From a virus: 64,000 nucleotides of DNA. Location: the UHGV virus genome UHGV-0176771. One strand, given 5' to 3'. A program made the translations under genes and the position numbers. Below, in pieces: positions 3,556 through 29,634 of this stretch (position 1 is its first letter; each line of letters begins with the position of its first letter). A model generated the notes under the pieces. It saw nothing but the letters and a program-made list of their open reading frames with translations. It did no database searches and was not told the DNA's origin.

Positions 3556-3777
3556 GTGACGAAAATAACTCTAAAACAAAAAATTGAATCTGCATATACT
3601 ATGGCAGGAATGACACAAACAGAATTTGCGAAACGTATGGGAATGAGTCAACAAACATTTTCGAGCCGTTTAAAAGTGGGAAAGTTTACACAAGAGGAAC
3701 TTGAAAAAATGGCTAGTATTGTGGGTGCTGAATGGAAAAGTGGATTTTACTTTCATAATGGGAATAGGATCGAATAA
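3556..3777 (+). CDS. XRE-family HTH transcriptional regulator (73 aa; GTG start, start uncertain)
   Basis: MTQTEFAKRMGMSQQTFSSRL is a typical XRE HTH. GGAGGTG directly upstream. Terminator follows, then a promoter with palindromic operators. Confidence 0.6.
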   Translation: MTKITLKQKIESAYTMAGMTQTEFAKRMGMSQQTFSSRLKVGKFTQEELEKMASIVGAEWKSGFYFHNGNRIE

Positions 3778-3789
3778 AAAGAACTGTAC

Positions 3790-3812
3790 AGAACTTTGTA
3801 TAGTTCTTTTTT
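3790..3812 (+). terminator. Rho-independent terminator after the HTH gene
   Basis: AGAACT-TTGTAT-AGTTCT hairpin followed by TTTTTT. Confidence 0.45.
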
Positions 3813-3859
3813 AATACCTAAATTAACAAATAAAACTTTGTAAAATACAAATAAATATA

Positions 3860-3917
3860 TTGACACAAAGATTTCTTTGTGATATAGTAACATCAACGAT
3901 AACAAAGAAATCTTTGT
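3860..3917 (+). promoter_or_regulatory. Promoter TTGACA-17-TATAGT overlapped by palindromic operator CAAAGATTTCTTTG, with a second copy ACAAAGAAATCTTTGT 36 bp downstream
   Basis: TTGACA 3860-3865, TATAGT 3883-3888. Inverted repeats at 3866-3879 and 3902-3917 share half-sites CAAAGA/TCTTTG. Confidence 0.45.
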
Positions 3918-4069
3918 TAAGCGTATAGCACCTTGTCAACTTCATATAGTTAATCAAATACAACGCGTTTATACGAGCAGCCAACACTGTTTAGGTACAG
4001 AACTCTTATAAGCGGAAAATCAGCAAGTGAATTAAGGGAATAAACCGTAAACAGGCTGTGTTGTATGAT

Positions 4070-4123
4070 GTTCTAGTCTATCGGTAAAAGTCCGATACTG
4101 ATGAGCAGGAGCGAAACTAGAAG
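4070..4123 (+). ncRNA. Candidate type III hammerhead self-cleaving ribozyme
   Basis: Stem III UUCUAGU / ACUAGAA. Cleavage triplet GUC (4076-4078). Stem I UAUCGG-UAAAAGU-CCGAUA. Core CUGAUGA (4098-4104). Short stem II GC-AGGA-GC. GAAA (4113-4116). Confidence 0.55.
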
Positions 4124-4158
4124 AGAATAAGAAAACATACATAAAGAAAGGGCAAAGG

Positions 4159-4557
4159 GTGGAAATTATGAAAGAATTTAGAATTGAAAATAATAAAATT
4201 TACAGTAGTAGTGGACTTTGTGAAAAAACGGATATTTTTGAAATAGTGGATAAAATTCCGTCTGGCTTTTTTGTCTGGAATATCGGAGAAAATATGGGAA
4301 GTGATGAATATATTCCACTTGCACAGGATCTAAAGCCTGGCGATAAGGAAAGTTTTGAGATAAATCCATACACTCTTAAAGCTATCAAACTTGATTTCGA
4401 AGAAGTAAAACTTTTAAGAAATGCCGCAAGAGTTGGAGTTAATAACAGAATCACCGCAGAAAAAGCATTAAAAAGCAAAAGAAAAGGATATTGGAGTAAT
4501 AGAAAAAGAGAACAGGCAGAAAAAACAATTGAAATCTTTAATCGAATAACAGCGTAA
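4159..4557 (+). CDS. hypothetical protein (132 aa)
   Basis: ORF track. RBS AAAGGGTGGAAATT then ATG. Confidence 0.55.
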   Translation: MEIMKEFRIENNKIYSSSGLCEKTDIFEIVDKIPSGFFVWNIGENMGSDEYIPLAQDLKPGDKESFEINPYTLKAIKLDFEEVKLLRNAARVGVNNRITAEKALKSKRKGYWSNRKREQAEKTIEIFNRITA

Positions 4558-4635
4558 AACGAATTTGTTTCAGCATGGCTTTATCAAAAATTGTAAGAAA
4601 TACAAAACTTTATACTAGACAGGAGGAAAAATACA

Positions 4636-5253
4636 ATGTTAGCAAGAACAATCAAACACGAAGAATTAAAAGGCGGCTACACGATGGGAAAGAAAATCAT
4701 CATTGATGCCTGTGAGATTTTCGGAGAATTTGAAGTTATGGCAATGTATGAAGATGGTAAGGAGTTAGAAAGCAAAACCGTAACAACGGAAAGCGAAGCA
4801 ATTAAAGTATTTGATGAGCTGTTTTTAAAGTATGCGGAGCCGTTACAATGTGCGCTTTATAATAAATTACATTCTGGAAAGAAATATACACTTGTGTATT
4901 TGAATGACTTTGGTTTTCCGGTAGCTGAAAAGATCACTTTTCATTCTGTTAGATCATCCACATATGCACAACACAGCGATGTTATGGAAATGATTTTTAC
5001 ACCATACCGAAAAAGAACACAATATAGAAAACTCTTCTATAACTGTTCTATGATGATTTTTGAAGGTTGGCAGGATTTAAAAGAAGAGGAAATAAAAGAA
5101 ACTTTTGAAGATAATAAAAATGTAAAAATTACAAAATCAAAATATGGCTGCTTTGACAGTAGGTATATTGATGATTTAGAGAACTGTTTTAAAAATCCAG
5201 TTGTTATCTTTAAGAATTATAAAACAGGTGTAAATGGTAAAATTTACGCATAG
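4636..5253 (+). CDS. hypothetical protein (205 aa)
   Basis: ORF track. RBS CAGGAGGAAAAATACA then ATG. Confidence 0.6.
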   Translation: MLARTIKHEELKGGYTMGKKIIIDACEIFGEFEVMAMYEDGKELESKTVTTESEAIKVFDELFLKYAEPLQCALYNKLHSGKKYTLVYLNDFGFPVAEKITFHSVRSSTYAQHSDVMEMIFTPYRKRTQYRKLFYNCSMMIFEGWQDLKEEEIKETFEDNKNVKITKSKYGCFDSRYIDDLENCFKNPVVIFKNYKTGVNGKIYA

Positions 5254-6251: not shown

Positions 6252-7196
6252 ATGAGTAGAAACGGAAAACTTGAACCTATGGAAGTGGAAACAATGATGA
6301 ATGAAGCAAGAATGCTAAACAATATCATTGAAGTTGGAGAAAGAATGATCGTATCAGACAAAATGGAAGAAGCAAGATCGAAACATGATGGAAGAGAAAA
6401 GGCAATTATCAGCATCAATCCGTTGCTTATTCATGTTCCAGATTGGCAAAGAGATTTAACAGTTAATACAGCGAAGAAAATCGGTTCCGAATTTAGTCCA
6501 TATAAATGGGATTTACCAAAAATCATGCATAAGAATAATAAATTTTATGTTGTTGACGGTATGCACAGAATCATTGGCGCTTATTTTGGAAACATGAAAT
6601 TGATTCAGGTTGAAGTATTGATCGGAATTACAGAAGCAGAAGCGGTTGACTTATTCTTGTCACAGCAAGACGATCGAAAAACCATGACTCCTGTCGATAT
6701 CTACAGTGCGGCGCTTGTAGCTAAAAAAGAAGAATATGTTACATTAAAATCTATCTGTGACAGAAACCACATTGCTGTTAAGGGAGATAGGAGCCCAGTA
6801 AAAAATCCTATTGGTATTTTAACTTCTGTCTCTGACGGTGCAAAGATGTCGAGAGCTTGTCCGGATTTATTAGACAGAATTTTACAACTTATCGTAAAAC
6901 TACAATGGAACGGGGGCAAAACTTATCGTGAAGGAAAGGCATTTAGCGCGAAAGTATTAAGAGTATTTAGAAAATTATATGCCTACTACTCTGGAAGAGA
7001 GACAGACATGGAAAGGGTTCTGTTGAATAACTGTAAAGGAAGTAAATATTTTAATGATAATTTATCAGAGAAGTGGCAAGATTCATTATTCGATTTCCTT
7101 TCCGGTGTGATCGAAAGGAATATTGATATTCCGGCAATTGAGTCTAAGACAACACGAAAAAGAACATCAAGAAAAGCAGTAGCAAAGACTGCATGA
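6252..7196 (+). CDS. ParB/Srx-fold (ParB N-terminal nuclease-like) domain protein (314 aa)
   Basis: KFYVVDGMHRIIGAYFG matches the ParB/sulfiredoxin DGxxR motif region. RBS AAAGGAGATTAGAAAA then ATG. Confidence 0.65.
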   Translation: MSRNGKLEPMEVETMMNEARMLNNIIEVGERMIVSDKMEEARSKHDGREKAIISINPLLIHVPDWQRDLTVNTAKKIGSEFSPYKWDLPKIMHKNNKFYVVDGMHRIIGAYFGNMKLIQVEVLIGITEAEAVDLFLSQQDDRKTMTPVDIYSAALVAKKEEYVTLKSICDRNHIAVKGDRSPVKNPIGILTSVSDGAKMSRACPDLLDRILQLIVKLQWNGGKTYREGKAFSAKVLRVFRKLYAYYSGRETDMERVLLNNCKGSKYFNDNLSEKWQDSLFDFLSGVIERNIDIPAIESKTTRKRTSRKAVAKTA

Positions 7197-7301
7197 GAAA
7201 AACTTACATATTACGTTCTGTGAGTGTCACAGCTTGCAGAATGATTTCAGGGAAATAAAAAATACAACAAATAAACACAACAACAAAAGGAGAATAATAC
7301 A

Positions 7302-7442
7302 ATGGAGATTTTGAGCGAATTTACAATTTGCGGAAAGAAGTATTGCACTGTAAGAACAAAAGGCGGTGTATCAGTGGTGGAAAAATGGGAGTATAACAAC
7401 GTAGTGAACAAGTATATGAAGAACGGAGGACGTATGAAATGA
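7302..7442 (+). CDS. small hypothetical protein (46 aa)
   Basis: RBS AAAAGGAGAATAATACA then ATG. Stop overlaps the next start (ATGAAATGAATG). Confidence 0.4.
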   Translation: MEILSEFTICGKKYCTVRTKGGVSVVEKWEYNNVVNKYMKNGGRMK

Positions 7443-7687
7443 ATGTAGTTGAAACTGTTATGACGGAAAAGGAATGGAAGAAACATAATAAAGAATGGTT
7501 AGAAGGATATGTTATGGCTGCTACGAGTCAAAAATTTAAACAGTGGAAACGCAGACTGAACTTTCAGAAATTTTCTGGATTAGTTTTATTGCTGATCGCA
7601 CTGTTTATTGTAGAAACGGACGCTAAATTGTATGTTGCAATGTTTGGTGCAGCACTGATCGCATACTGGAAACCATTTTGCAAGTAA
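7439..7687 (+). CDS. membrane protein (82 aa)
   Basis: ORF track. C-terminal two TM segments LVLLLIALFIVETDAKLYVAMFGAALIAYW. Confidence 0.5.
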   Translation: MNVVETVMTEKEWKKHNKEWLEGYVMAATSQKFKQWKRRLNFQKFSGLVLLLIALFIVETDAKLYVAMFGAALIAYWKPFCK

Positions 7688-7718
7688 GAATTATTAGAAA
7701 GAAAGCAGAGGAAATATT

Positions 7719-8231
7719 ATGAATATCGAAGTAAATAAGACAAATGTAAAAGTAGAAGGAAATAATCTGGTTATCGAATTGACGGAAGAACTAAGGAAGT
7801 CTTTAGGAATGAGGCAAGAGAAACAGTTATATGAATGCAAGGTTGGAAACGTGATTGTAGACAACATTGGAAATGAATGGTATGTGGTGGAACATGATAA
7901 CAAGAACAATAGAACCAAAGTTTGGAGAAAAGAACTTCTTGACGGAACTTATAAATTCGACAGTGAATCAAATGATTTTAGAACTTCTGAAATCAAGAAT
8001 ATGTTGAATGATGAAAGAGAGAAGATTCTTACTGATATTTACAAAGGTTTTGGAAAAGAAAATGTATTAGTTGATACAGTTGATTTGCTTTCTATGGATG
8101 GACTGGATACTTACGGAATATGTAATTGTAAAGTACATTTAGGCACTTTTGATGATTACAGAAAAGCAAAAAAGAATGGTATGTTTAGGACAGAAAATGA
8201 AAAACCGTTTTGGTTAGATACACCAACCTGA
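7719..8231 (+). CDS. Second DGR target protein (170 aa). Ends at an in-frame TGA; the homologous variable repeat continues in the same frame to 8372
   Basis: C-terminus ...FWLDTPT* aligns codon-for-codon with target 1 ...YWLSTPNQT. The TGA aligns with a Gln codon. Downstream in frame is ...SSSFVQVVGGRGNVDYSVCGWGVRGVRPF, the VR. Confidence 0.65.
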   Translation: MNIEVNKTNVKVEGNNLVIELTEELRKSLGMRQEKQLYECKVGNVIVDNIGNEWYVVEHDNKNNRTKVWRKELLDGTYKFDSESNDFRTSEIKNMLNDEREKILTDIYKGFGKENVLVDTVDLLSMDGLDTYGICNCKVHLGTFDDYRKAKKNGMFRTENEKPFWLDTPT

Positions 8232-8250
8232 ACAAATGAAGGATGCTCAT

Positions 8251-8334
8251 CTTCCTTTGTTCAGGTTGTTGGCGGTCGTGGGAACGTGGATTACAGCGTT
8301 TGCGGCTGGGGCGTTCGTGGAGTTCGTCCGTTTT
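8251..8334 (+). repeat. DGR variable repeat 2 (VR2), cognate to the TR at 28394..28480, located 20 kb from the TR
   Basis: CTTCCTTTGTTCAGGTTGTTGGCGGTCGTGGGAACGTGGATTACAGCGTTTGCGGCTGGGGCGTTCGTGGAGTTCGTCCGTTTT. About 19 differences from the TR fall on TR adenines and one does not (C to T). Shares the VR-type 3' end GGAGTTCGTCCGTTTT. Confidence 0.75.
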
Positions 8335-8459
8335 GCTCTTTAGACTCTTCAATCTGTGTATCAGTTGAATAACGTAGAACTTTGGAACAGTCAGGAACAG
8401 CTTTTTGCTGTTCCGTATGTTATGGAAACAAATAATGATTTTATCGGGAGGAAATAGTT

Positions 8460-8672
8460 ATGACTTATGATGACTTGAATGTAGGAATGAATTTGATATG
8501 TGAACTATCAGATGGAACAAAAAAAGAAATGATAGTCGTTAGAAAAGGAATAGATGGTTTTGGAGAAAAATCAGTTGTATTTCAAAATAAGAGTTCCATT
8601 GCACAATTTTATTGTAAAGCAGCAGATGTTCCTAGATGGCATATAATGCCTAGTAAAAGAATAAAAAGATAA
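8460..8672 (+). CDS. hypothetical protein (70 aa)
   Basis: ORF track. RBS GGGAGGAAATAGTT then ATG. Confidence 0.5.
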   Translation: MTYDDLNVGMNLICELSDGTKKEMIVVRKGIDGFGEKSVVFQNKSSIAQFYCKAADVPRWHIMPSKRIKR

Positions 8673-8693
8673 TTTCAAATGGAGGAAATAGGT

Positions 8694-9020
8694 ATGAGAA
8701 AAGTAATTTTTAAAATTGATGATAAAGAATATTTCAGAAGAGAATTAGAAAAAGATAATTGTATAGGAAAACAGGCAGATGATATTCTGAAAGGTTTGGG
8801 AAATTTCAAAGCAATTTACACATTGTACGGAGTAGGAAATAATGTGGATAGATACGAATTAACAGATTATGACGGAAATAAAATCAGTATCAATGATTTA
8901 AACGGTTATGAAAAAGGAGTTGTTTTGAATGATTGCTGCGCCTATTTTACAGGTGGTAAATACCATAGTAATGCAAGTCAGCCTTGCGGTGTAGTGGAAA
9001 TTGTGGAAGAGGAGGTGTAG
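8694..9020 (+). CDS. hypothetical protein (108 aa from ATG 8694)
   Basis: RBS GGAGGAAATAGGT then ATG 8694. ORF track gives 8679. Confidence 0.5.
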   Translation: MRKVIFKIDDKEYFRRELEKDNCIGKQADDILKGLGNFKAIYTLYGVGNNVDRYELTDYDGNKISINDLNGYEKGVVLNDCCAYFTGGKYHSNASQPCGVVEIVEEEV

Positions 9021-9022
9021 AT

Positions 9023-9250
9023 ATGAAAATTCATTTATTTTGGATTGATAATAATTGGAGGAAAACAGGAGGAACGGCAAATAACTATAATCTTATTATT
9101 GATATGGAAAATAAAGTTTATAAGCAGTTTGTCAATCCTTTTTATGGGTATTATAAAGCGGAGGACATAGAAGTTAAAAGAAAGTCAGATATTGTAGATT
9201 ACATAAAATACTTAAAAGACAATGATTTTAAAGAAGTAGAAAAAATTTAA
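9023..9250 (+). CDS. hypothetical protein (75 aa from ATG 9023)
   Basis: RBS GAGGAGGTGTAGAT then ATG 9023. ORF-track start 8984 overlaps the upstream gene. Confidence 0.5.
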   Translation: MKIHLFWIDNNWRKTGGTANNYNLIIDMENKVYKQFVNPFYGYYKAEDIEVKRKSDIVDYIKYLKDNDFKEVEKI

Positions 9251-9283
9251 AGAACAGACGAAAGCACGATTTTAAGAGGTGAA

Positions 9284-9466
9284 ATGAGTATGAACATAAA
9301 TACCAGGAAGAAACAAAAAACGGACAAAATGTTATTAAGAAATAATGAACGCAAGATGTGTGGATTACCATTACATAGAAAGAAAAGTAAAAAGCGAAGA
9401 TATTTGACTAGGTGCGAAGCAGAAGAAACAATAGGCGCTTTTTTAGATTATTGTAACAGGGATTAG
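9284..9466 (+). CDS. small basic protein (60 aa)
   Basis: ORF track. Lys/Arg-rich (RKKQKTDK...HRKKSKKRRY). RBS AAGAGGTGAAATGAGT then ATG. Confidence 0.45.
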   Translation: MSMNINTRKKQKTDKMLLRNNERKMCGLPLHRKKSKKRRYLTRCEAEETIGAFLDYCNRD

Positions 9467-9485
9467 TTATTGGGAGGAAATAAAC

Positions 9486-9773
9486 ATGGAAATTAAAAAT
9501 TTATCACAGATAAAAAAAGCAATCAAAGAGGGACGTAAATTTATTATCAAAAAACACTATATTAGATCAGAATATGAGGGACAGATCAGAAAACCGAATG
9601 TAGTACAGACAAACGGATTTTACAGTATTGAAGATGGAAAACCAGGTAGCAAAATTACATTAGCTAACAATGGAAAAGGAAGTTGGATAGAATACGGAAA
9701 GGCTTCTGATTGGAAATTTGAAGATGGTGTTTGCAAACAGTCTAATGTGTGGGAAATCGAATTCGTGCAATAA
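9486..9773 (+). CDS. hypothetical protein (95 aa)
   Basis: ORF track. RBS TGGGAGGAAATAAAC then ATG. Confidence 0.55.
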   Translation: MEIKNLSQIKKAIKEGRKFIIKKHYIRSEYEGQIRKPNVVQTNGFYSIEDGKPGSKITLANNGKGSWIEYGKASDWKFEDGVCKQSNVWEIEFVQ

Positions 9774-15982: not shown

Positions 15983-16978
15983 ATGTGTTATAAAATTGAA
16001 AAACAAAGAAAAATAGAACAAAAACTTGCAAAAGAATTAAAAGATATTCCTGATTTTATATCAGATTTTTTTGATAGATATAAATCAGCAGCTACAAAGA
16101 GAGTTAATTGGATATATATTAGAGATATGCTTAATTGGATGATCAATAATAAATATATAAATAAACAAAGCATAGCAGAAATCAATGAAACAGATATACA
16201 GATTATTACTAGTAATAATCTTATTAAATATCTTAACGAATTAAAAAATGGAATTTTAGGAAGAACAAATTCACTGGATTCTATCAATACAAAGAAGAAT
16301 GTATTCAGTGCTTTTTGGAATTATTTACGACAAAATAAATATGTCGATGATAATGTGATTTCACATATACCTGGCAATCTATATAAATCTGAAAAAAGAT
16401 ATAAAGAAGTAGAAATCCCAACAGATGAGCAAGTGGAAAAATTCTTAGTAAATATCACAGATGGAAATAAAAATGAATTTAATATTATTAGAAATATTGC
16501 CATTGTTCAACTTATAAAAGGAAGTGGTATTCGTTCAGAAGAGCTAATAAATATGGATATTTCCGATTTACATCTATACGAAGAAAAAAGACCGTATATG
16601 ATGATTCTTGGAAAGGGAAATATACAAGAATATGATAAAGTTTATATGTCTGAACAGGCTAGAATGAATATTGAGGAGTATTTGAAAATTAGAACTTTTT
16701 TCGTAACAGAGAGAAAAATTAAAGATAATGCATTGTTTTTATCAAATGAAAATAACAGATTAAGTAAAGGTGCAATTACAGGGTTTTTTAATTTATATTC
16801 GGAAGGTGAAATTTACCCACATATGTTAAGACATTGGGTTGGAAGTAAATTGTATGAAGAAACAAAAGATATTGTTCTTGTTCAAAGACAATTAAGGCAC
16901 AAGAATTTGGAAACAGCAGCAAGATACTATGTACACATGGATGAATCTACTATAGCAGATGCTGTACTCACGCTTTAA
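15983..16978 (+). CDS. Tyrosine recombinase / phage integrase family protein (331 aa)
   Basis: C-terminal catalytic signature HMLRHWVGSKL...LVQRQLRHKNLETAARYYVH (R..H-R-Y). RBS GGAGGACATTAT then ATG 15983. ORF-track start 15872 is an in-frame upstream extension overlapping the previous gene. Confidence 0.8.
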   Translation: MCYKIEKQRKIEQKLAKELKDIPDFISDFFDRYKSAATKRVNWIYIRDMLNWMINNKYINKQSIAEINETDIQIITSNNLIKYLNELKNGILGRTNSLDSINTKKNVFSAFWNYLRQNKYVDDNVISHIPGNLYKSEKRYKEVEIPTDEQVEKFLVNITDGNKNEFNIIRNIAIVQLIKGSGIRSEELINMDISDLHLYEEKRPYMMILGKGNIQEYDKVYMSEQARMNIEEYLKIRTFFVTERKIKDNALFLSNENNRLSKGAITGFFNLYSEGEIYPHMLRHWVGSKLYEETKDIVLVQRQLRHKNLETAARYYVHMDESTIADAVLTL

Positions 16979-17363: not shown

Positions 17364-18453
17364 TATGAATAATAATATTTTTGAGATTATGCATAAAGAT
17401 AGAAGAGTTGCAAGAGTTGACTCATCTTCTGGTAGATGTAAAATATATTATAAAAGCTTTATGCCGTATAACCTATATCTTGAAGAAGAAGAAGATGTTG
17501 ATACTCTTGTTAATAATATTACAAATTTCAATTATTGGTGTGCAACAAGAGTTCTCACATTGGATAGAAAATACGCTAAAGAAATTTTGAACAGTATAGG
17601 AATGAATCAGGCTGTAACGGATAAGGATCGTGCAAAAGTAGCATTATCATACAGGTGTACATCCTTGATAGATGTTTTCTGGGTAAGAAATAAAGGTGAA
17701 AAGATAACATTTTCTGAAGTGAATTTGTATGACAACCATCTTGAAAATATTTTTATAGATATTGCTCTGCGAGGAAAACAATATACGGTAAATAATGAAG
17801 ATCTGGCGAAAGACTTATCTACGAATGGTGTTTTCCCAAAAGCCTGGAAACGGACAGAAAAAGGATTTTCTCTGTTGAAAGACGGAGGGATAGAAGTTGT
17901 CGAGAAGGAACTTCTATCAAGTAAAATTTGTCAGTGTTTTGATGTAAAGCAGGTCATATACAACAGAAGTGTATTTGCTGAAGAACCGGTAACTATAAGT
18001 GAAAATATCACATCAAAGGACTTTTCCATTGTGTCTATGGAAGCATTTGAAGTGTATTCGCAAAATCATGACCGAAATATCCGAAAATATATTTTAGCAC
18101 TTGATAAGCATGATTACTACATGATGAACATTATTGATTACCTTGTGGGAAACACTGATCGTCACTGGGGAAACTGGGGAGTTCTGGTAAATAATGTGAA
18201 TAATAAACCAGTATCTCTTCATCCATTGATGGATTTCAATAAGACATTTAACTCGTATGAAACAATAGAAGGTTCTAATTGCCAGACTTGCTTTGGGAAA
18301 AGAATCAACCAGAAAGACGCTGCATTAGAAGCTGTAAGAAAAATTGGATTGAATCAAATCAAAGAAGTGAATTATGATTGGTTTGAATATTTTCCAGAAT
18401 ATGTTGGGATGTTCAAGAAACGGTATGGAATTTTGAAGAGAATAAATGATTGA
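17356..18453 (+). CDS. HipA-like / PI3-4-kinase-fold protein kinase domain protein (365 aa)
   Basis: IIDYLVGNTDRHWGNWGVLV matches the HipA_C catalytic loop (GNxDxHxxN; DRHxxN of PI3/4K-like kinases). HPLMDFNKT downstream resembles the metal-binding P.YD/DFG-like segment. Confidence 0.6.
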   Translation: MYNMNNNIFEIMHKDRRVARVDSSSGRCKIYYKSFMPYNLYLEEEEDVDTLVNNITNFNYWCATRVLTLDRKYAKEILNSIGMNQAVTDKDRAKVALSYRCTSLIDVFWVRNKGEKITFSEVNLYDNHLENIFIDIALRGKQYTVNNEDLAKDLSTNGVFPKAWKRTEKGFSLLKDGGIEVVEKELLSSKICQCFDVKQVIYNRSVFAEEPVTISENITSKDFSIVSMEAFEVYSQNHDRNIRKYILALDKHDYYMMNIIDYLVGNTDRHWGNWGVLVNNVNNKPVSLHPLMDFNKTFNSYETIEGSNCQTCFGKRINQKDAALEAVRKIGLNQIKEVNYDWFEYFPEYVGMFKKRYGILKRIND

Positions 18454-22480: not shown

Positions 22481-22852
22481 ATGAAAATTAAATTTGAAAA
22501 ATTTGATATTGTAATGGTTGACTTTGGAGATAACACTATAGGAAGTGAACAAGGCGGGAAAAGACCAGCAATTATTGTACAGAATGATATAGGAAATCAT
22601 TTCGCTGCAACAACCATCGTTATACCATTTAGTACAAAATTAAAAAAGATAAACCAACCTACGCATACTCTTATCAAAAAGGGAAGAGGTACAGGGTTGG
22701 TAAAAGATTCTATTGTTTTGTGCGAATGCATAAGAAATATTTCAGAATTAAGAATAGAAAAATACCTTGGAAAGATAACATCTATGGACGATAAACGTGC
22801 AATAAAGATTGCATGTGACGCAAATTTTATGTGGGGAGATGATGTGGCATGA
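22481..22852 (+). CDS. PemK/MazF-family endoribonuclease toxin (123 aa)
   Basis: FDIVMVDFGDNTIGSEQGGKRPAIIVQNDIGNHFAATTIVIPFSTKLKK matches the MazF/PemK/Kid signature. RBS AAAGGAGGATGCGTAATT then ATG. Confidence 0.8.
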   Translation: MKIKFEKFDIVMVDFGDNTIGSEQGGKRPAIIVQNDIGNHFAATTIVIPFSTKLKKINQPTHTLIKKGRGTGLVKDSIVLCECIRNISELRIEKYLGKITSMDDKRAIKIACDANFMWGDDVA

Positions 22853-23184
22853 GATATGTATTGATGGACATTGAAGAAGCTGTTAAGCACTGTAAAGGGA
22901 AAAAAGTTTTAGTTGCAGAACAAGACCTTGCAAATAATGAGGTAGTAGGTTTTGAAAGAAAAACTTTTCAAGAATGCAAGGATATTATCGAGCGATCTGA
23001 AACAATAGCAAAAATTTGTGATGACTTTTTAAACCAGTTGAGAGTGTTTTCTGAAAAACAATTAGATTTGATGAACATAAAACCTATCGGAACCATGAGT
23101 ACAATATTAGTTCATGATCCTTTCCCGGATACAGAAGCGCAGAAAAAGAACAAAAAATCGAACAAACGTTCTGGCGACTATTGA
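22849..23184 (+). CDS. hypothetical protein (111 aa) overlapping the MazF stop (ATGA), candidate downstream-encoded partner
   Basis: ORF track. 4-nt overlap with the toxin gene. No recognisable antitoxin fold. Confidence 0.5.
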   Translation: MRYVLMDIEEAVKHCKGKKVLVAEQDLANNEVVGFERKTFQECKDIIERSETIAKICDDFLNQLRVFSEKQLDLMNIKPIGTMSTILVHDPFPDTEAQKKNKKSNKRSGDY

Positions 23185-24867: not shown

Positions 24868-26331
24868 ATGGCAAAGAAAATTAGAAAAAAGACATTATCG
24901 CTAGATTCCTATTTAGAGAAGATTGTGGAAGAAGATATTAGTGATAATCAGGACGTTCAAAGACTGTTTTGTTGGGAAAATGGAATGGTGAATGAGTTAA
25001 TCAAAACTGTATTAACTGATGATTATATTCCACCAATTATCTTAGGAGAAGAAGATTTGGACGAAGACGTTGTGCAGCAATACATTGTTGATGGAATGCA
25101 AAGAAGTTCTGCGTTGGTTAAATTTAAGCATGAAAACTATAAAATTACAGCTACTTTAGAAGATCCGATTATCCAATATCAGAGAAAAAAGAAAGATGAA
25201 AATAATAAAATCTGTAAAGATGAATACGGAAAAGTTATTTGGGAATCTGTTGAATATGATTTGAGAAGAAAAACATATGAAATGTTACCGCCAGAATTGA
25301 AAAAAATGTTTGATGATTATCAGATTGACATTACAATACATCAGCATTGTACGATGTCACAGATTAGTAAATTGGTGAGAAGATACAACAATCATTTGGG
25401 AATGAATACATCTCAGAAAGCATTTACTTATATTGATTTACATGCAAGAAAAATAAGGACAATATCTGAGAAAAATAAATTCTTTAAAAATTGTATGTCT
25501 TGTTCCGGTAAGCAGCAATCGAAAGGTATTAGAGAAAGACTTGTATGTGAATCTGTCATGACAACGTTTTTCTTTGATAACTGGAAAAGTGCAATAAAGA
25601 ACATGAGCAAATATCTAAATGAGAACGCAACGGAAGAACACTTTGATACTGTAAATGAATATTTTAGCAGGATTGAATCTGTGTGCAAAGATAATTTCAC
25701 AGAAGTGTTTGTGCCAAAAAATGTTATTGTTTGGATCCCTGTGTTTAAAGAGTTTGCTAAATTTGGATTAGATGATATTAAGTTTAAGGATTTTGTAGAA
25801 GAATTTGAAAAGTCTTTATATAAAAAAGATGTAAATGGAGTAACATTTGACAAATTAAATGAGGATCGACATACAAAAGGCAAGGCTATTTTAAAAGAGA
25901 AAATTAACATCTTAACTGCTCTCATGAAAGAGTATTTACATATTAAAGAAGATGAAGAAAGTCTTGTCAAAGTGGGAGAGAATAATGTAATAGATAATGC
26001 TTCTTCAGACCAGAACGCTCTTGAATTTATCAAAGAAAATGTTAAAGAAGATGTGATTGATGAAGACATCGAATTATATAAAATTCAGTTAGATGACTGG
26101 ACAGTAGAGGTTGATAACTCATCGAAACTTCTTGAACCTGAAAACATGAATTCTTTACTTGCTGTTGTTGCGTACAGCTTTGAAACAAACATAGATTTAG
26201 AAATTCCGGAGTGGATGGTAAGTTTCTTTAACAGAAATTCTACATATATTAAAGATCAAAAAGAAAATTATACATACATGGTAAATGATATTGGTGAATT
26301 TTTAAGGAACAAGTATGAACTTGTAGGATAA
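24868..26331 (+). CDS. DUF262 (ParB/Srx-fold; GmrSD N-terminal-type) domain protein (487 aa)
   Basis: QQYIVDGMQRSSALVKF matches the DUF262 DGQQR motif. RBS ATTGGAGGAATATAATC then ATG 24868. ORF-track start 24838 overlaps the sigma-like gene. Confidence 0.6.
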   Translation: MAKKIRKKTLSLDSYLEKIVEEDISDNQDVQRLFCWENGMVNELIKTVLTDDYIPPIILGEEDLDEDVVQQYIVDGMQRSSALVKFKHENYKITATLEDPIIQYQRKKKDENNKICKDEYGKVIWESVEYDLRRKTYEMLPPELKKMFDDYQIDITIHQHCTMSQISKLVRRYNNHLGMNTSQKAFTYIDLHARKIRTISEKNKFFKNCMSCSGKQQSKGIRERLVCESVMTTFFFDNWKSAIKNMSKYLNENATEEHFDTVNEYFSRIESVCKDNFTEVFVPKNVIVWIPVFKEFAKFGLDDIKFKDFVEEFEKSLYKKDVNGVTFDKLNEDRHTKGKAILKEKINILTALMKEYLHIKEDEESLVKVGENNVIDNASSDQNALEFIKENVKEDVIDEDIELYKIQLDDWTVEVDNSSKLLEPENMNSLLAVVAYSFETNIDLEIPEWMVSFFNRNSTYIKDQKENYTYMVNDIGEFLRNKYELVG

Positions 26332-27141: not shown

Positions 27142-27906
27142 ATGTGTGAATTTAAAAGTGGGATTATTTTTAAGAATAGGGTGGAACTTGCACCATTAGG
27201 GAATGAAAGTCATTCAAGTTTACTTGAAAACTTGGGTGTAGAAGATAATGAATTTAATGCTTCTAAGAAATTTGTGAGAGCAGAATTAATTCCGCCAGAG
27301 AGATATGTTATCACTTCTGACATTTCAAAGTGGACTTATAAAGTCGATCAGGATATTGTGCCAGAATGGTATAGTAACGATCCAGAGAGATATGAAGAAG
27401 AATTTAGAGAATCCGTTAAAGATTTTATGAACAAGCACTTTAAAGAGGAATTTGGATACTATTGGACAAACATTCAAATGGATGGAAAGATATATCATTT
27501 TATGTATGGAGTTCTTACGAATATGACTTTCGGCAGCAACAATAATTATGGAGAGTCTTTAGTAAGAAAATATCTTAAAGAGTGTAAACTTGCAAAAGAT
27601 ATTAAAGAAAAATATGGAAATAGTATTGTTCCATTTGAAAATAACTTGCTTAGTATGTATGGATTTAATGATTATGGCGTTGTAAAAGACGATGTATTAT
27701 CTATTCCGACATTTGATTTATTTAGAAAATGTGGTGAAAAACTTCCATTAATCAATTATGCATACTGGCTGTCAACTCCAAACCAGACACCGTCAAGAAA
27801 AGATTCTTCCTATGTTCAGGTTGTCTACGGTTGTGGGGACGTGCATTACAACGATTGCTACTGGAACGTTCTTGGAGTTCGTCCGTTTTTTATCACCGAA
27901 TCTTAA
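27142..27906 (+). CDS. DGR target (variable) protein 1 (254 aa) with a C-terminal C-type-lectin-like variable region
   Basis: C-terminus ...SSYVQVVYGCGDVHYNDCYWNVLGVRPFFITES is encoded by VR1. RBS AAGGGAAAGGAGAAATAAATT then ATG. Confidence 0.8.
   Translation: MCEFKSGIIFKNRVELAPLGNESHSSLLENLGVEDNEFNASKKFVRAELIPPERYVITSDISKWTYKVDQDIVPEWYSNDPERYEEEFRESVKDFMNKHFKEEFGYYWTNIQMDGKIYHFMYGVLTNMTFGSNNNYGESLVRKYLKECKLAKDIKEKYGNSIVPFENNLLSMYGFNDYGVVKDDVLSIPTFDLFRKCGEKLPLINYAYWLSTPNQTPSRKDSSYVQVVYGCGDVHYNDCYWNVLGVRPFFITES
27806..27888 (+). repeat. DGR variable repeat 1 (VR1)
   Basis: Aligns with the TR at 28396-28478. All 11 differences are at TR adenines (A to G/T/C). 3' end GGAGTTCGTCCGTTTT versus TR GGAGTTCGTCCGTTCT (IMH versus IMH*-like). 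Confidence 0.8.
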
Positions 27907-28045
27907 ATCTGTTTATCTTGTCGATAACGTTTTGTGGAGACGAAGACAGAACAATGCGCAAGCGTTGTTCGTAAGTCTCCGAAGAACCAAACTCAGCAAG
28001 ATTGGAGTGATTTATGTGGAAGTTATTACAAAAGCTATCGACTTA

Positions 28046-28369
28046 ATGCAATATACATATTCTGTAACAGCGAATAAAAAGAGATATCCAGCAAAATATA
28101 AAATGCTTATAGAAAGAATTCAGAATGAATGTATGAATATATATGATTTTCTGATGAGTGCAAATAGAATACAAATAAATGCAGAAAAACAGAAAAGATT
28201 AGATTTACAAACTAGATCTATTTCCTCATGTGATAAATTGTCCTGCTATGTTGAATTATCAATGAATCTTAGCCTTATAGGATCAGATACAGTTGAATAT
28301 TGGCAGAAAAAGATATGCGATGTTAAGTACATGACAATAGCATGGAGAAGCAAAGATAAAACAAGATAA
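28046..28369 (+). CDS. Avd-like accessory variability determinant candidate (108 aa; alternative GTG start 28007)
   Basis: Small basic helical ORF between VR and TR (MQYTYSVTANKKRYPAKYKMLIERIQNECMNIYDFLMSANRIQ...YMTIAWRSKDKTR). Position and size fit an Avd four-helix bundle. ORF-track 27758 start is an N-terminal extension through the VR. Confidence 0.5.
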   Translation: MQYTYSVTANKKRYPAKYKMLIERIQNECMNIYDFLMSANRIQINAEKQKRLDLQTRSISSCDKLSCYVELSMNLSLIGSDTVEYWQKKICDVKYMTIAWRSKDKTR

Positions 28370-28596: not shown

Positions 28597-29634
28597 ATGA
28601 TAAAAGATAACACAGATTTTGATAAGATTATTGATTTTGAAAATTTATATAAAGCATACAGAGATTCAAAAAGTGGCAAAGGTTTTACGAAAAGCAGAAT
28701 TAAATTTGAATTATCTGCTCTTGACGGAATTTATCAAATTAAGAAACTTTTAGAATCAAAGCAATATGAAGTAGATAGATATAATAGATTTAAAGTATAT
28801 GAACCGAAAGAGAGAATTATAGAAGCAGGAAGTTTTAAAGACAAAATTGTGCAGCACAGTTTATGTGATAATGTGCTTCTTCCTATTTTAAGTAATGAAT
28901 TTATATACACGAATTATGCCGGACAAATAGGAAAAGGAACATTGTTTGGTTTGGATTGTCTGAAATATCAAATTTATTTAGCATATCAGAAATACGGATA
29001 TGATTGTTGGATTATTAAAGGTGATATTAAAAAATTTTTCTATAATATTGATCATAATATTCTGAAAGATATTGTTCCATATTTTATATCTAATCCAGAT
29101 ACATACTGGTTATGTGAAAAATTTATTGATAGTACAAGTGAGAAAGGGTTGCCTCTTGGAAATCAAGTTAGTCAGGTATTTGCTTTATTATATTTGTCTG
29201 GTTTTGATCATTTTATAACTGGAGAGTTAGGTGTCAAATATTATGGAAGATATATGGATGATTTCTATTTAATTGTAGAATCAAAACAATATGCAAAATA
29301 TTGTTTGTGTGCAATAGAAGATTTTGTAAACACTCTAAATCTTGAATTGAACGGTAAAACTCAGATTATACCTTTTAAAAATGGAATTAAATTTTGTGGT
29401 TTTCATACACATGTCACAAAAGATGGAAAGGTAATTAGAAAACTTACAAATGAAAAGAAGAGAAAATCGAAAAAGAAATATCGAAAAATGGCAAAGATGG
29501 TAAAAGAGAATAAGTTATCAAAAGAAAAATTCATAGAATCTTATGAGTCTTGGAAGAATCATATTTCACATGGTAATTGTATCAAATTTACATATGAGAT
29601 GGATAAGATGATAGATGAGATATTATCAAGTTAA
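28597..29634 (+). CDS. DGR-type reverse transcriptase (345 aa)
   Basis: RT motifs RIIEAGSFKDKIVQHSL, GDIKKFFYNIDHN, YGRYMDDFYLI (YMDD) and the DGR-specific LGNQVSQ (SQ motif). Confidence 0.9.
   Translation: MIKDNTDFDKIIDFENLYKAYRDSKSGKGFTKSRIKFELSALDGIYQIKKLLESKQYEVDRYNRFKVYEPKERIIEAGSFKDKIVQHSLCDNVLLPILSNEFIYTNYAGQIGKGTLFGLDCLKYQIYLAYQKYGYDCWIIKGDIKKFFYNIDHNILKDIVPYFISNPDTYWLCEKFIDSTSEKGLPLGNQVSQVFALLYLSGFDHFITGELGVKYYGRYMDDFYLIVESKQYAKYCLCAIEDFVNTLNLELNGKTQIIPFKNGIKFCGFHTHVTKDGKVIRKLTNEKKRKSKKKYRKMAKMVKENKLSKEKFIESYESWKNHISHGNCIKFTYEMDKMIDEILSS

Follow-up and report, generated by a model that had tools for sequence, protein, structure and literature searches.

Why does a variable repeat lie behind a stop codon? 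The 64,000-nt stretch of the virus genome UHGV-0176771 analysed here (the window) contains a diversity-generating retroelement (DGR) with a template repeat (TR), a reverse transcriptase (RT) and an adjacent target gene, target 1, which carries the variable repeat VR1. Another variable repeat, VR2, belongs to a distant gene, target 2, and sits in frame behind the TGA codon at 8229-8231 which ends the called open reading frame (ORF) of that gene. The locus might represent a sequencing error, a recoded or leaky stop codon, or a gene broken by mutation. The evidence makes it likely that target 2, an ordinary DGR target of the non-adjacent kind, is present in the window as a null or near-null allele which is still a homing substrate.

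A second variable repeat of the same retroelement

The DGR does have a second target: VR2, which lies about 20 kb upstream of the TR. In a gapless alignment, positions 8251-8334 and the TR differ at 19 sites, 17 of them at the 24 TR adenines and two at the 60 other bases (Fisher's exact test, p = 1.9e-10). With the repeat begun one base earlier (8250, opposite TR A28395), the adenine-site differences number 18. The two remaining differences are an internal C>T at 8270 and a C>T at 8333 in the 3' end, the latter common to VR1. Both VRs end in ...CCGTTTT and the TR in ...CCGTTCT, followed by divergence, and hence the initiation of mutagenic homing (IMH) element of the VRs is distinct from the IMH* of the TR. 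The initial annotation, made from the sequence alone, had proposed a remote second target of this DGR some 20 kb from the TR, with adenine-specific differences and a VR-type 3' end, and the computed alignment upholds each of these points. Its counts need revision: it placed about 19 differences on adenines, where 17 are found, and where it reported a single non-adenine C-to-T there are two, the internal one at 8270 and the one at 8333. A BLAST search of 8200-8400 against the window matched VR1 and the TR only, and a scan of all 64 kb with the non-adenine TR positions returned VR1, VR2 and the TR and no third VR.

As annotated, the frame stays open from the TGA to the TAA at 8370-8372, over 46 codons. 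Translated through the stop, target 2 aligns with the target 1 protein (BLASTP, 39% identical across 110 residues, E = 1e-16), and a Gln faces the stop. This pairing with a Gln of target 1 had been noted before and holds in the BLASTP alignment, but the residue at the orthologous position is an invariant Ser (AGT) and not Gln. A separate small ORF behind the stop was considered and rejected, as the frame lacks a start codon until at least halfway through the VR, and an ATG in another frame, at 8243, is not at a usable distance from its Shine-Dalgarno-like sequence.

Related genomes carry the same gene at the orthologous locus, intact and with a hypervariable VR, and not an unrelated sequence. 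The 217-aa read-through sequence, used as the query, retrieved 420 homologues. Among those listed, all 120 are uninterrupted proteins of 217 aa with Ser at codon 171 and Asp or Asn at residue 170. Entropy in these 120 homologues reaches about 3 bits at the residues derived from TR AAC/AAT-type codons, and the remainder of the protein is nearly invariant. All 31 loci from IMG/VR are intact, and each of the 33 intact loci examined has either RAC/AGC AGT or a deletion at the site of the stop. A profile-free search of 1.8 billion cluster representatives yielded 438 relatives, mostly of about 200 aa. Pfam family DUF6273 was matched by 59 of the 80 aligned members; the read-through product of the window itself gave no Pfam match, so that the affiliation is seen only through the set of homologues.

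In the AlphaFold model of the intact allele, strands were predicted at residues 180-184, 190-194, 205-209 and 213-216. Residues 171-217 accordingly hold four beta-strands, the last of a lectin-like fold, together with the whole VR, and the DUF6273 target shows the C-type-lectin-like fold with the VR on its C-terminal strands. Without them, a 170-aa product has an incomplete fold core and no variable surface at all. Ongoing diversification of the targets in populations is evident from the VR entropy, from variation of VR1 under an identical TR and from the VR2 haplotypes described below. Target 2 is a bona fide, actively diversified, non-adjacent DGR target.

Two further kinds of allele were seen at this locus. 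Four IMG/VR loci (L026, L028, L029 and L031) encode 214-aa alleles without codons 171-174 (AGT ACA AAT GAA; window 8229-8240), and thus the loop that bears the stop tolerates deletion. Two contigs from ENA (P0122 and P0123) carry independent frameshifts of target 2 in an A-run at codons 150-153 (window about 8166-8180). These may be real second knock-outs or homopolymer errors; if read as alleles, they suggest that the target-2 gene could be dispensable.

Origin of the stop codon

The intact allele P0002 (loci L053-L056, at least six contigs) is identical to the TGA alleles L004 and L058 over 7719-8372 save for positions 8227, 8229 and 8231, where AAC AGT (Asn-Ser) has become ACC TGA (Thr-stop). 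The VR is unchanged between P0002 and L004/L058, so that the event which gave rise to the stop was not part of retrohoming; an origin during retrohoming was rejected for this reason.

The three changes create a perfect inverted repeat with outer arms at 8224-8236 and 8256-8268 (13 bp) and an inner stem formed by 8238-8242 with 8250-8254 (5 bp). Its 3' arm is the 5' end of VR2. In the ancestor, 10 of the 13 outer positions were paired, and it was precisely the three mismatched ones that changed. Each changed base became the Watson-Crick partner of the VR arm, and all 13 positions pair in the descendant. One of these partners, G8265, is specific to the VR, the TR having an A. The RNA of the TGA allele folds with -24.7 kcal/mol (z = -4.0), and its DNA with z = -5.2 on the plus and z = -6.5 on the minus strand; the intact alleles yielded z = +0.2 and -0.35. 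On the minus strand, the ancestor already forms an inner ACAAA/GAAG hairpin (5+4 bp) able to nucleate a fold-back. Intermediates with one or two of the three changes were absent from more than 40 loci. The hairpin of 13+5 bp that holds the TGA had been missed in the initial annotation, and in place of a single point mutation the stop traces to a three-base cluster which perfects this hairpin.

An imperfect inverted repeat in the ancestor, a clustered change that completes one arm and the lack of any other change in the gene together bear the signature of a single quasipalindrome template-switch mutation. Template switching of this kind homogenises the arms of inverted repeats and produces multi-nucleotide mutations (PMC7202029, PMC8604942). 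In the proposed course of events, the nascent minus strand would fold back on the pre-existing short hairpin, copy 5-8 bases from its own VR-derived arm, TCAGG(TTG), and return to the normal template, which would reproduce the derived sequence exactly. One replication error would at once have turned AACAGT into ACCTGA, and the TGA at codon 171 would be a by-product of making the inverted repeat perfect.

Three independent point mutations, or gene conversion from elsewhere, with the hairpin as a coincidence, would be a very improbable origin. A donor for conversion could be sought in VR1 or in mutagenised TR cDNA, both of which also contain a CAACCTGAACA-like minus-strand sequence. However, the template TTTGTTCAGGTTG lies 25 nt away in the ancestor itself, including the VR-specific T8257 and G8265. 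Against independent mutations, three changes within 5 nt are the only differences in the 654-nt gene, and they hit the three mismatched positions out of 13, each with the complementary base (1/3), which amounts to roughly 1/286 x 1/27, given three changes in the arm.

Quasipalindrome mutations in lacZ and thyA of E. coli (PMC7202029) and in coding sequences of yeast (PMC8604942) likewise involve an imperfect repeat perfected by an arm-templated cluster. They differ from the present case, in which the templating arm is a DGR VR, G8265 having been copied, and the resulting stop disconnects this VR from its gene. The locus offers a clean natural case of the proposed template switch at a quasipalindrome, with the direct ancestor in hand and a VR as the template.

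Rewriting behind the stop and the fate of the allele

VR2 was rewritten after it had been cut off from its gene. The TGA alleles are the same from about 7500 to 8460 outside VR2, and their six VR2 haplotypes differ exclusively within 8277-8325. Five mismatches to non-adenine bases of the window-type TR serve as markers in the ancestral haplotype (L004, L058 and P0002): 8270 T, 8282 C, 8291 C, 8306 T and 8316 T. The TR base is present at 8316 in L001 and L006, at 8316 and 8306 in L003, L005, L007 and L008, and at 8316, 8306, 8291 and 8282 in the window and L002; marker 8270 is unconverted in every TGA allele. Conversion is nested from the 3' end, and TR-adenine sites inside the tracts take new bases. 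Outside the tracts nothing changed, with the one exception of a C>T at 8325 in L001. The TGA allele and the window-type TR occur together in L058 and L059, of which the first 58 nt of the TR with four marker sites were seen; loci spanning VR2 and the TR were recovered by look-up with the protein starting at 17365. The post-stop changes are deduced from assembled contigs. The mismatch at 8270, previously taken as drift since the last retrohoming, has another explanation: all TGA alleles, the intact ancestor and most relatives have T at this position and the TR has C. As an ancestral base, it marks the sequence 5' of the last conversion tract.

We infer that retrohoming rather than recombination is the main source of the post-stop changes. 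Retrohoming works on DNA and needs only the 3' end of the VR, the elements downstream and homology between TR and VR. A VR behind a stop would therefore still receive TR-derived sequence, in 3'-anchored tracts of variable length. A fixed 3' end and a variable, homology-dependent 5' junction have been described for BPP-1 and in a survey of DGRs (PMC3240598, PMC5758913); homology controls integration on the 5' side, and the DNA upstream of the VR can be dispensed with (PMC3240598). Since retrohoming is independent of translation, change in a VR behind a stop does not imply function. The five mismatches thus form a natural marker-coconversion experiment which reveals 3'-anchored tracts in public metagenomes, and they suggest that the DGR keeps writing into an untranslated target. 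We rejected the idea that VR1 had supplied the post-stop changes by gene conversion, because its bases at the adenine sites are different in the same genomes.

The two repeats vary over different lengths. In genomes with an identical TR, VR1 varies over its full length (27806-27830 included) and VR2 of the TGA lineage only 3' of 8276. The 5' end of the longest tract lies 2-9 nt from the 3' arm of the hairpin. The perfect hairpin or the marker mismatches may limit the extension of tracts in the 5' direction.

With a truncated product devoid of the VR and of four core strands, the allele would be a null, or no more than a leaky knock-down, of an accessory gene that the phage can do without. Loss of function of the TGA allele is our inference from this truncation. 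The initial annotation had left two options, a nonsense-interrupted pseudogene and readthrough of the UGA, and these are indeed the live ones; a null or near-null allele that still undergoes homing is the probable one.

Several points weigh against this reading, some against loss of function and others against homing as the source of change. UGA is the leakiest stop codon, with 2-4% readthrough measured by a reporter in E. coli (PMC10570021). The loop that contains codon 171 is deleted in four alleles and has the lowest model confidence; given this tolerance of deletion, a read-through protein would probably fold. At least 20 contigs carry the TGA allele, compared with at least six for its intact parent P0002, and it is found in mosaic backgrounds; a spread so wide and mosaic means that the allele is not obviously counter-selected. 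A suppressor tRNA may be encoded elsewhere in the genome of about 174 kb, only part of which was seen for each TGA genome. As to homing, some of the post-stop change could be recombination with other VR2 alleles. The tract of the window, translated SVCGWGVRG, is shared with the intact allele P0001 beyond chance (residue-frequency product about 4e-5), which points to recombination between alleles or patchy repair rather than to two independent homings. Moreover, G is retained at 8311 and 8314 in the short tracts; this calls for either a coincidence under strong A>G bias or patchy repair.

Within 8277-8321, the window and P0001 (L009/L010) differ at four TR-adenine sites only. Judged from this comparison, the window-type haplotype was probably moved by recombination between alleles or shares descent with that of P0001.

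A functional leaky stop is the first alternative to consider. A few percent of ribosomes would read UGA171, probably as Trp via tRNA-Trp, and a low dose of the full-length protein would be sufficient or advantageous. Besides the basal readthrough and the lower-confidence, deletion-tolerant loop mentioned above, this view can draw on the open frame of 46 codons, free of secondary damage in at least nine alleles, and on an allele that is widespread while the VR behind it is still changing. We nevertheless consider it unlikely. The TGA occurs in a single recent lineage only, against Ser at codon 171 in more than 150 relatives. The mutational mechanism accounts for its origin without selection. 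An undecayed frame is uninformative in so young an allele, which has zero substitutions in the 5' 490 nt, and homing needs no translation. In addition, the stop lies in the 5' arm of the hairpin, which would hence be melted when the UGA is at the ribosomal A site, unlike known stimulators of readthrough. Programmed readthrough finds no match in a conserved stop, since all 120 listed homologues and the 33 intact loci have a sense codon or a deletion here. Slightly more doubtful still is the specific proposal that leaky decoding of the UGA yields a small, possibly condition-dependent amount of full-length diversified protein and that the allele spread because the low dose was favoured. If this were true, homing over the full length of the VR would alter the hairpin, one arm of which is the VR itself, and would thereby couple VR rewriting to expression of the target.

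The coat gene of phage Qbeta ends in a leaky UGA that gives rise to the A1 read-through protein; this stop is conserved and essential. Target 2 shares with it a phage UGA followed by an open, meaningful frame, but its stop is a recent derived allele that is absent from more than 150 relatives.

Reassignment of TGA to Trp or Gly, or decoding as selenocysteine through a hairpin resembling a selenocysteine insertion sequence (SECIS) element, is extremely improbable. Recoded gut phages do exist, and a stem-loop with a G in its loop starts at the UGA, where an exchange of Ser for selenocysteine would be conservative. However, TGA terminates 18 other genes of the window, several with a tandem second stop or in ATGA overlaps, and none of the other window genes has a long homologous in-frame extension behind a TGA. 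ARAGORN detected no tRNA gene in the 64-kb window, and no Rfam family was matched in the window at the gathering threshold. Thus, the window exhibits neither the avoidance of TGA as a terminator nor the suppressor tRNA of recoded phages. None of the intact relatives has the hairpin, which came about as a by-product when the stop arose; this speaks against a selenocysteine signal.

Sequencing or assembly error, or heterogeneity within a sample, is the default suspicion with any lone in-frame stop, and its probability is practically negligible here: three bases are changed and not one, ACCTGA is identical in all TGA contigs examined, and the exact 170-aa product is encoded on contigs from independent runs and several pipelines (Logan, MEGAHIT-style k141 and metagenome scaffolds) and is present in RefSeq (WP_346304309.1). 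Its occurrence on many independent contigs, together with the 18 genes ending in TGA, excludes sequencing error and codon reassignment for the window. Residues 1-169 of the product are the same as in the intact 217-aa alleles P0002, P0003 and P0124. The TGA allele was visible in Logan, ENA and NCBI data only; its exact pattern had no occurrence in IMG/VR and one unrelated chance match in JGI metagenome contigs.

A knocked-out allele of an ordinary target, in place of a recoded or programmed-readthrough gene, removes an over-interpretation of the locus. It is also a warning for DGR annotation pipelines: a VR found outside any called ORF can belong to a real target with a recent nonsense mutation.

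The DGR cassette, its neighbourhood and known systems

The window contains a single DGR cassette, composed of target 1, an Avd-like ORF, the TR and the RT (Table 1). The RT is of the DGR type; its translation contains LGNQVSQ, the DGR motif as read by eye, and YMDD. The bAvd match of the Avd-like ORF (E = 0.003, 18.5 bits) stays under the Pfam cut-off of 40, and its size and position fit Avd. Between VR1 and the TR, 11 of the 12 differences are at TR adenines. VR1 differs over its whole length in nearly all of ten contigs with an identical TR and the same RT.

Table 1 Features of the DGR and of its two target loci in the window
Feature	Position	Strand	Basis or remark
Target 2, 5' part (codons 1-170, then TGA)	7719..8231	+	ORF list; exact product on at least 20 contigs
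Target 2, in-frame continuation behind the TGA (46 codons and TAA 8370-8372)	8232..8372	+	Translation
Perfect inverted repeat created by the cluster	8224..8268	.	RNA and DNA folding
Derived cluster (8227 A>C, 8229 A>T, 8231 T>A)	8227..8231	+	Only differences in the gene between P0002 and L004/L058
VR2, second DGR variable repeat	8250/8251-8334	+	Gapless TR alignment; adenine bias; hypervariable residues in 120 homologues
Latest conversion tract of the window allele	8277..8321	+	Compared with ancestral TGA allele and TR; descent shared with VR2 of P0001
Hairpin after VR2, GGAACAGC / TTTTT / GCTGTTCC	8394-8414	+	8 bp stem, 5-nt loop, z = -3.9
Genes between the DGR targets (integrase, 362-aa protein, PemK-like toxin pair, GmrSD_N-like protein)	15983-16978, 17365-18453, 22481-23184, 24868-26331		
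Target 1 gene	27142..27906	+	VR1 at 27806-27889
Nested hairpin after VR1	27929..27987	+	-28.1 kcal/mol, z = -4.95
Avd-like accessory gene	about 28016..28369	+	Weak bAvd match; called as a 117-aa gene in relatives
TR (template repeat)	28395/28396-28479	+	Same in 10 contigs sharing the RT
DGR reverse transcriptase	28597..29634	+	RVT_1 match, E = 4.5e-14

A hairpin follows each VR. The one after VR2 starts 60 nt past the repeat and also scores as terminator-like; it could serve in target recognition by the DGR or as an intrinsic terminator. It had been annotated as well; the structure is present, with a loop of TTTTT instead of TTTT and a distance of 60 rather than 70 nt. Measured from the end of the TR homology, the hairpins start about 40 nt (VR1) and about 60 nt (VR2) downstream, and their loops are not GRNA. 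Among the relatives compared (L009, L010, L037, L038, L039 and L012), the stem of the VR2 hairpin is retained with a flipped loop, TTTTT versus AAAA. L038 and L039 have another stem of 9 bp, GGACTAGAC, with loops of TAT versus ATA, and L012 is without a hairpin after VR2. From the aligned loci, these flips look like inversion of the spacer by template switching, with conservation of the structure.

In type, this is a standard DGR whose second target is non-adjacent. It resembles the DGR of BPP-1 (brt-avd-TR, with the VR in mtd) in its IGxxxSQ-type RT motif, the Avd-like gene, the adenine-specific transfer from TR to VR, the C-terminal VR in a C-type-lectin-fold protein, the VR 3' end unlike that of the TR, the hairpin downstream of the VR and the 5' junction set by homology (PMC3240598). 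In contrast to BPP-1, two targets are present, one at a distance of 20 kb; the hairpins start about 40-60 nt past the end of TR homology and have other loops, compared with about 4 bp and a GRNA loop in BPP-1; and the targets are small DUF6273 proteins in an early/replication region instead of a recognised tail fibre. DGRs of phages often have non-adjacent targets at distances of up to 50 kb, and mutagenesis varies in its 5' boundary (PMC5758913). The phage-associated DGRs surveyed by Wu et al. 2018 (PMC5758913) and the multi-target DGRs of Treponema denticola and Legionella likewise combine one TR with several VRs that differ in their 5' boundaries. They differ from the present system, where one target has a lineage-specific nonsense allele with nested tracts behind the stop. 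Among the inactivated DGRs of the DiGReF collection is one with a nonsense mutation in the RT, that of Ruminococcus gnavus ATCC 29149 (PMC3521204). These cases share with ours recent nonsense damage to one component and clean-looking VR/TR pairs; in our case, however, the RT is intact and apparently active, the target is damaged and the VR is still changing. The interest of the locus lies in a documented mutational mechanism and a natural series of conversion tracts, and not in a new type of system.

The source is probably a large temperate phage of gut Firmicutes, with one DGR (RT, Avd-like gene and TR) and two paralogous DUF6273 targets with a C-type-lectin fold. Relatives with the same RT are long-read contigs of 172-175 kb. 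An integrase, a sliding clamp, NAMPT, methyltransferases and toxin-like genes are encoded in the window, several with PHROG matches, and some homologues of target 2 reside on contigs of 0.4-1.6 Mb, which fits an integrated prophage. A blastn search of 7000-9500 against the INPHARED phage collection gave no match. The host labels conflict: an intact homologue is assigned to Mediterraneibacter gnavus, whereas the truncated 170-aa protein in RefSeq is labelled 'Bacteroides sp.'. No relative of the target-2 protein was found among GTDB species representatives with the peptide patterns used, so that the host assignment is taken entirely from the labels of the sources. The window has a GC content of about 32%, and that of M. 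gnavus is well above this value. Nearly all long ORFs run in the plus direction, and all 2-kb bins have positive GC skew.

The interval from target 2 to target 1 encodes an integrase, a protein of 362 aa that weakly matches a PHROG, a PemK-like toxin pair, the label of which is a Pfam label taken from relatives, and a GmrSD_N-like protein of 487 aa, compared with 722 aa in some relatives. The position after the RT is occupied by a DUF5052 gene in the window. In three relatives (L043 and L050, at 3639-5043, and L047, at 3646-4599), a gene, IS605 OrfB/TnpB-like or radical-SAM, is located immediately 3' of the DGR RT; the TnpB-like gene of the relatives encodes 377 aa and is accompanied by a Cas12f1-like TNB fragment.

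Within 27895-27927 of the window, target 1 stops at a TAA (27904-27906) where target 2 reads TCA. The six codons past this TAA (ICLSCR, then a stop) are homologous to the final strand of target 2 (SICVSVE). From this homology, target 1 appears to have lost the C-terminal strand of the family through a TCA>TAA change. The TAA is common to all ten relatives L042-L051.

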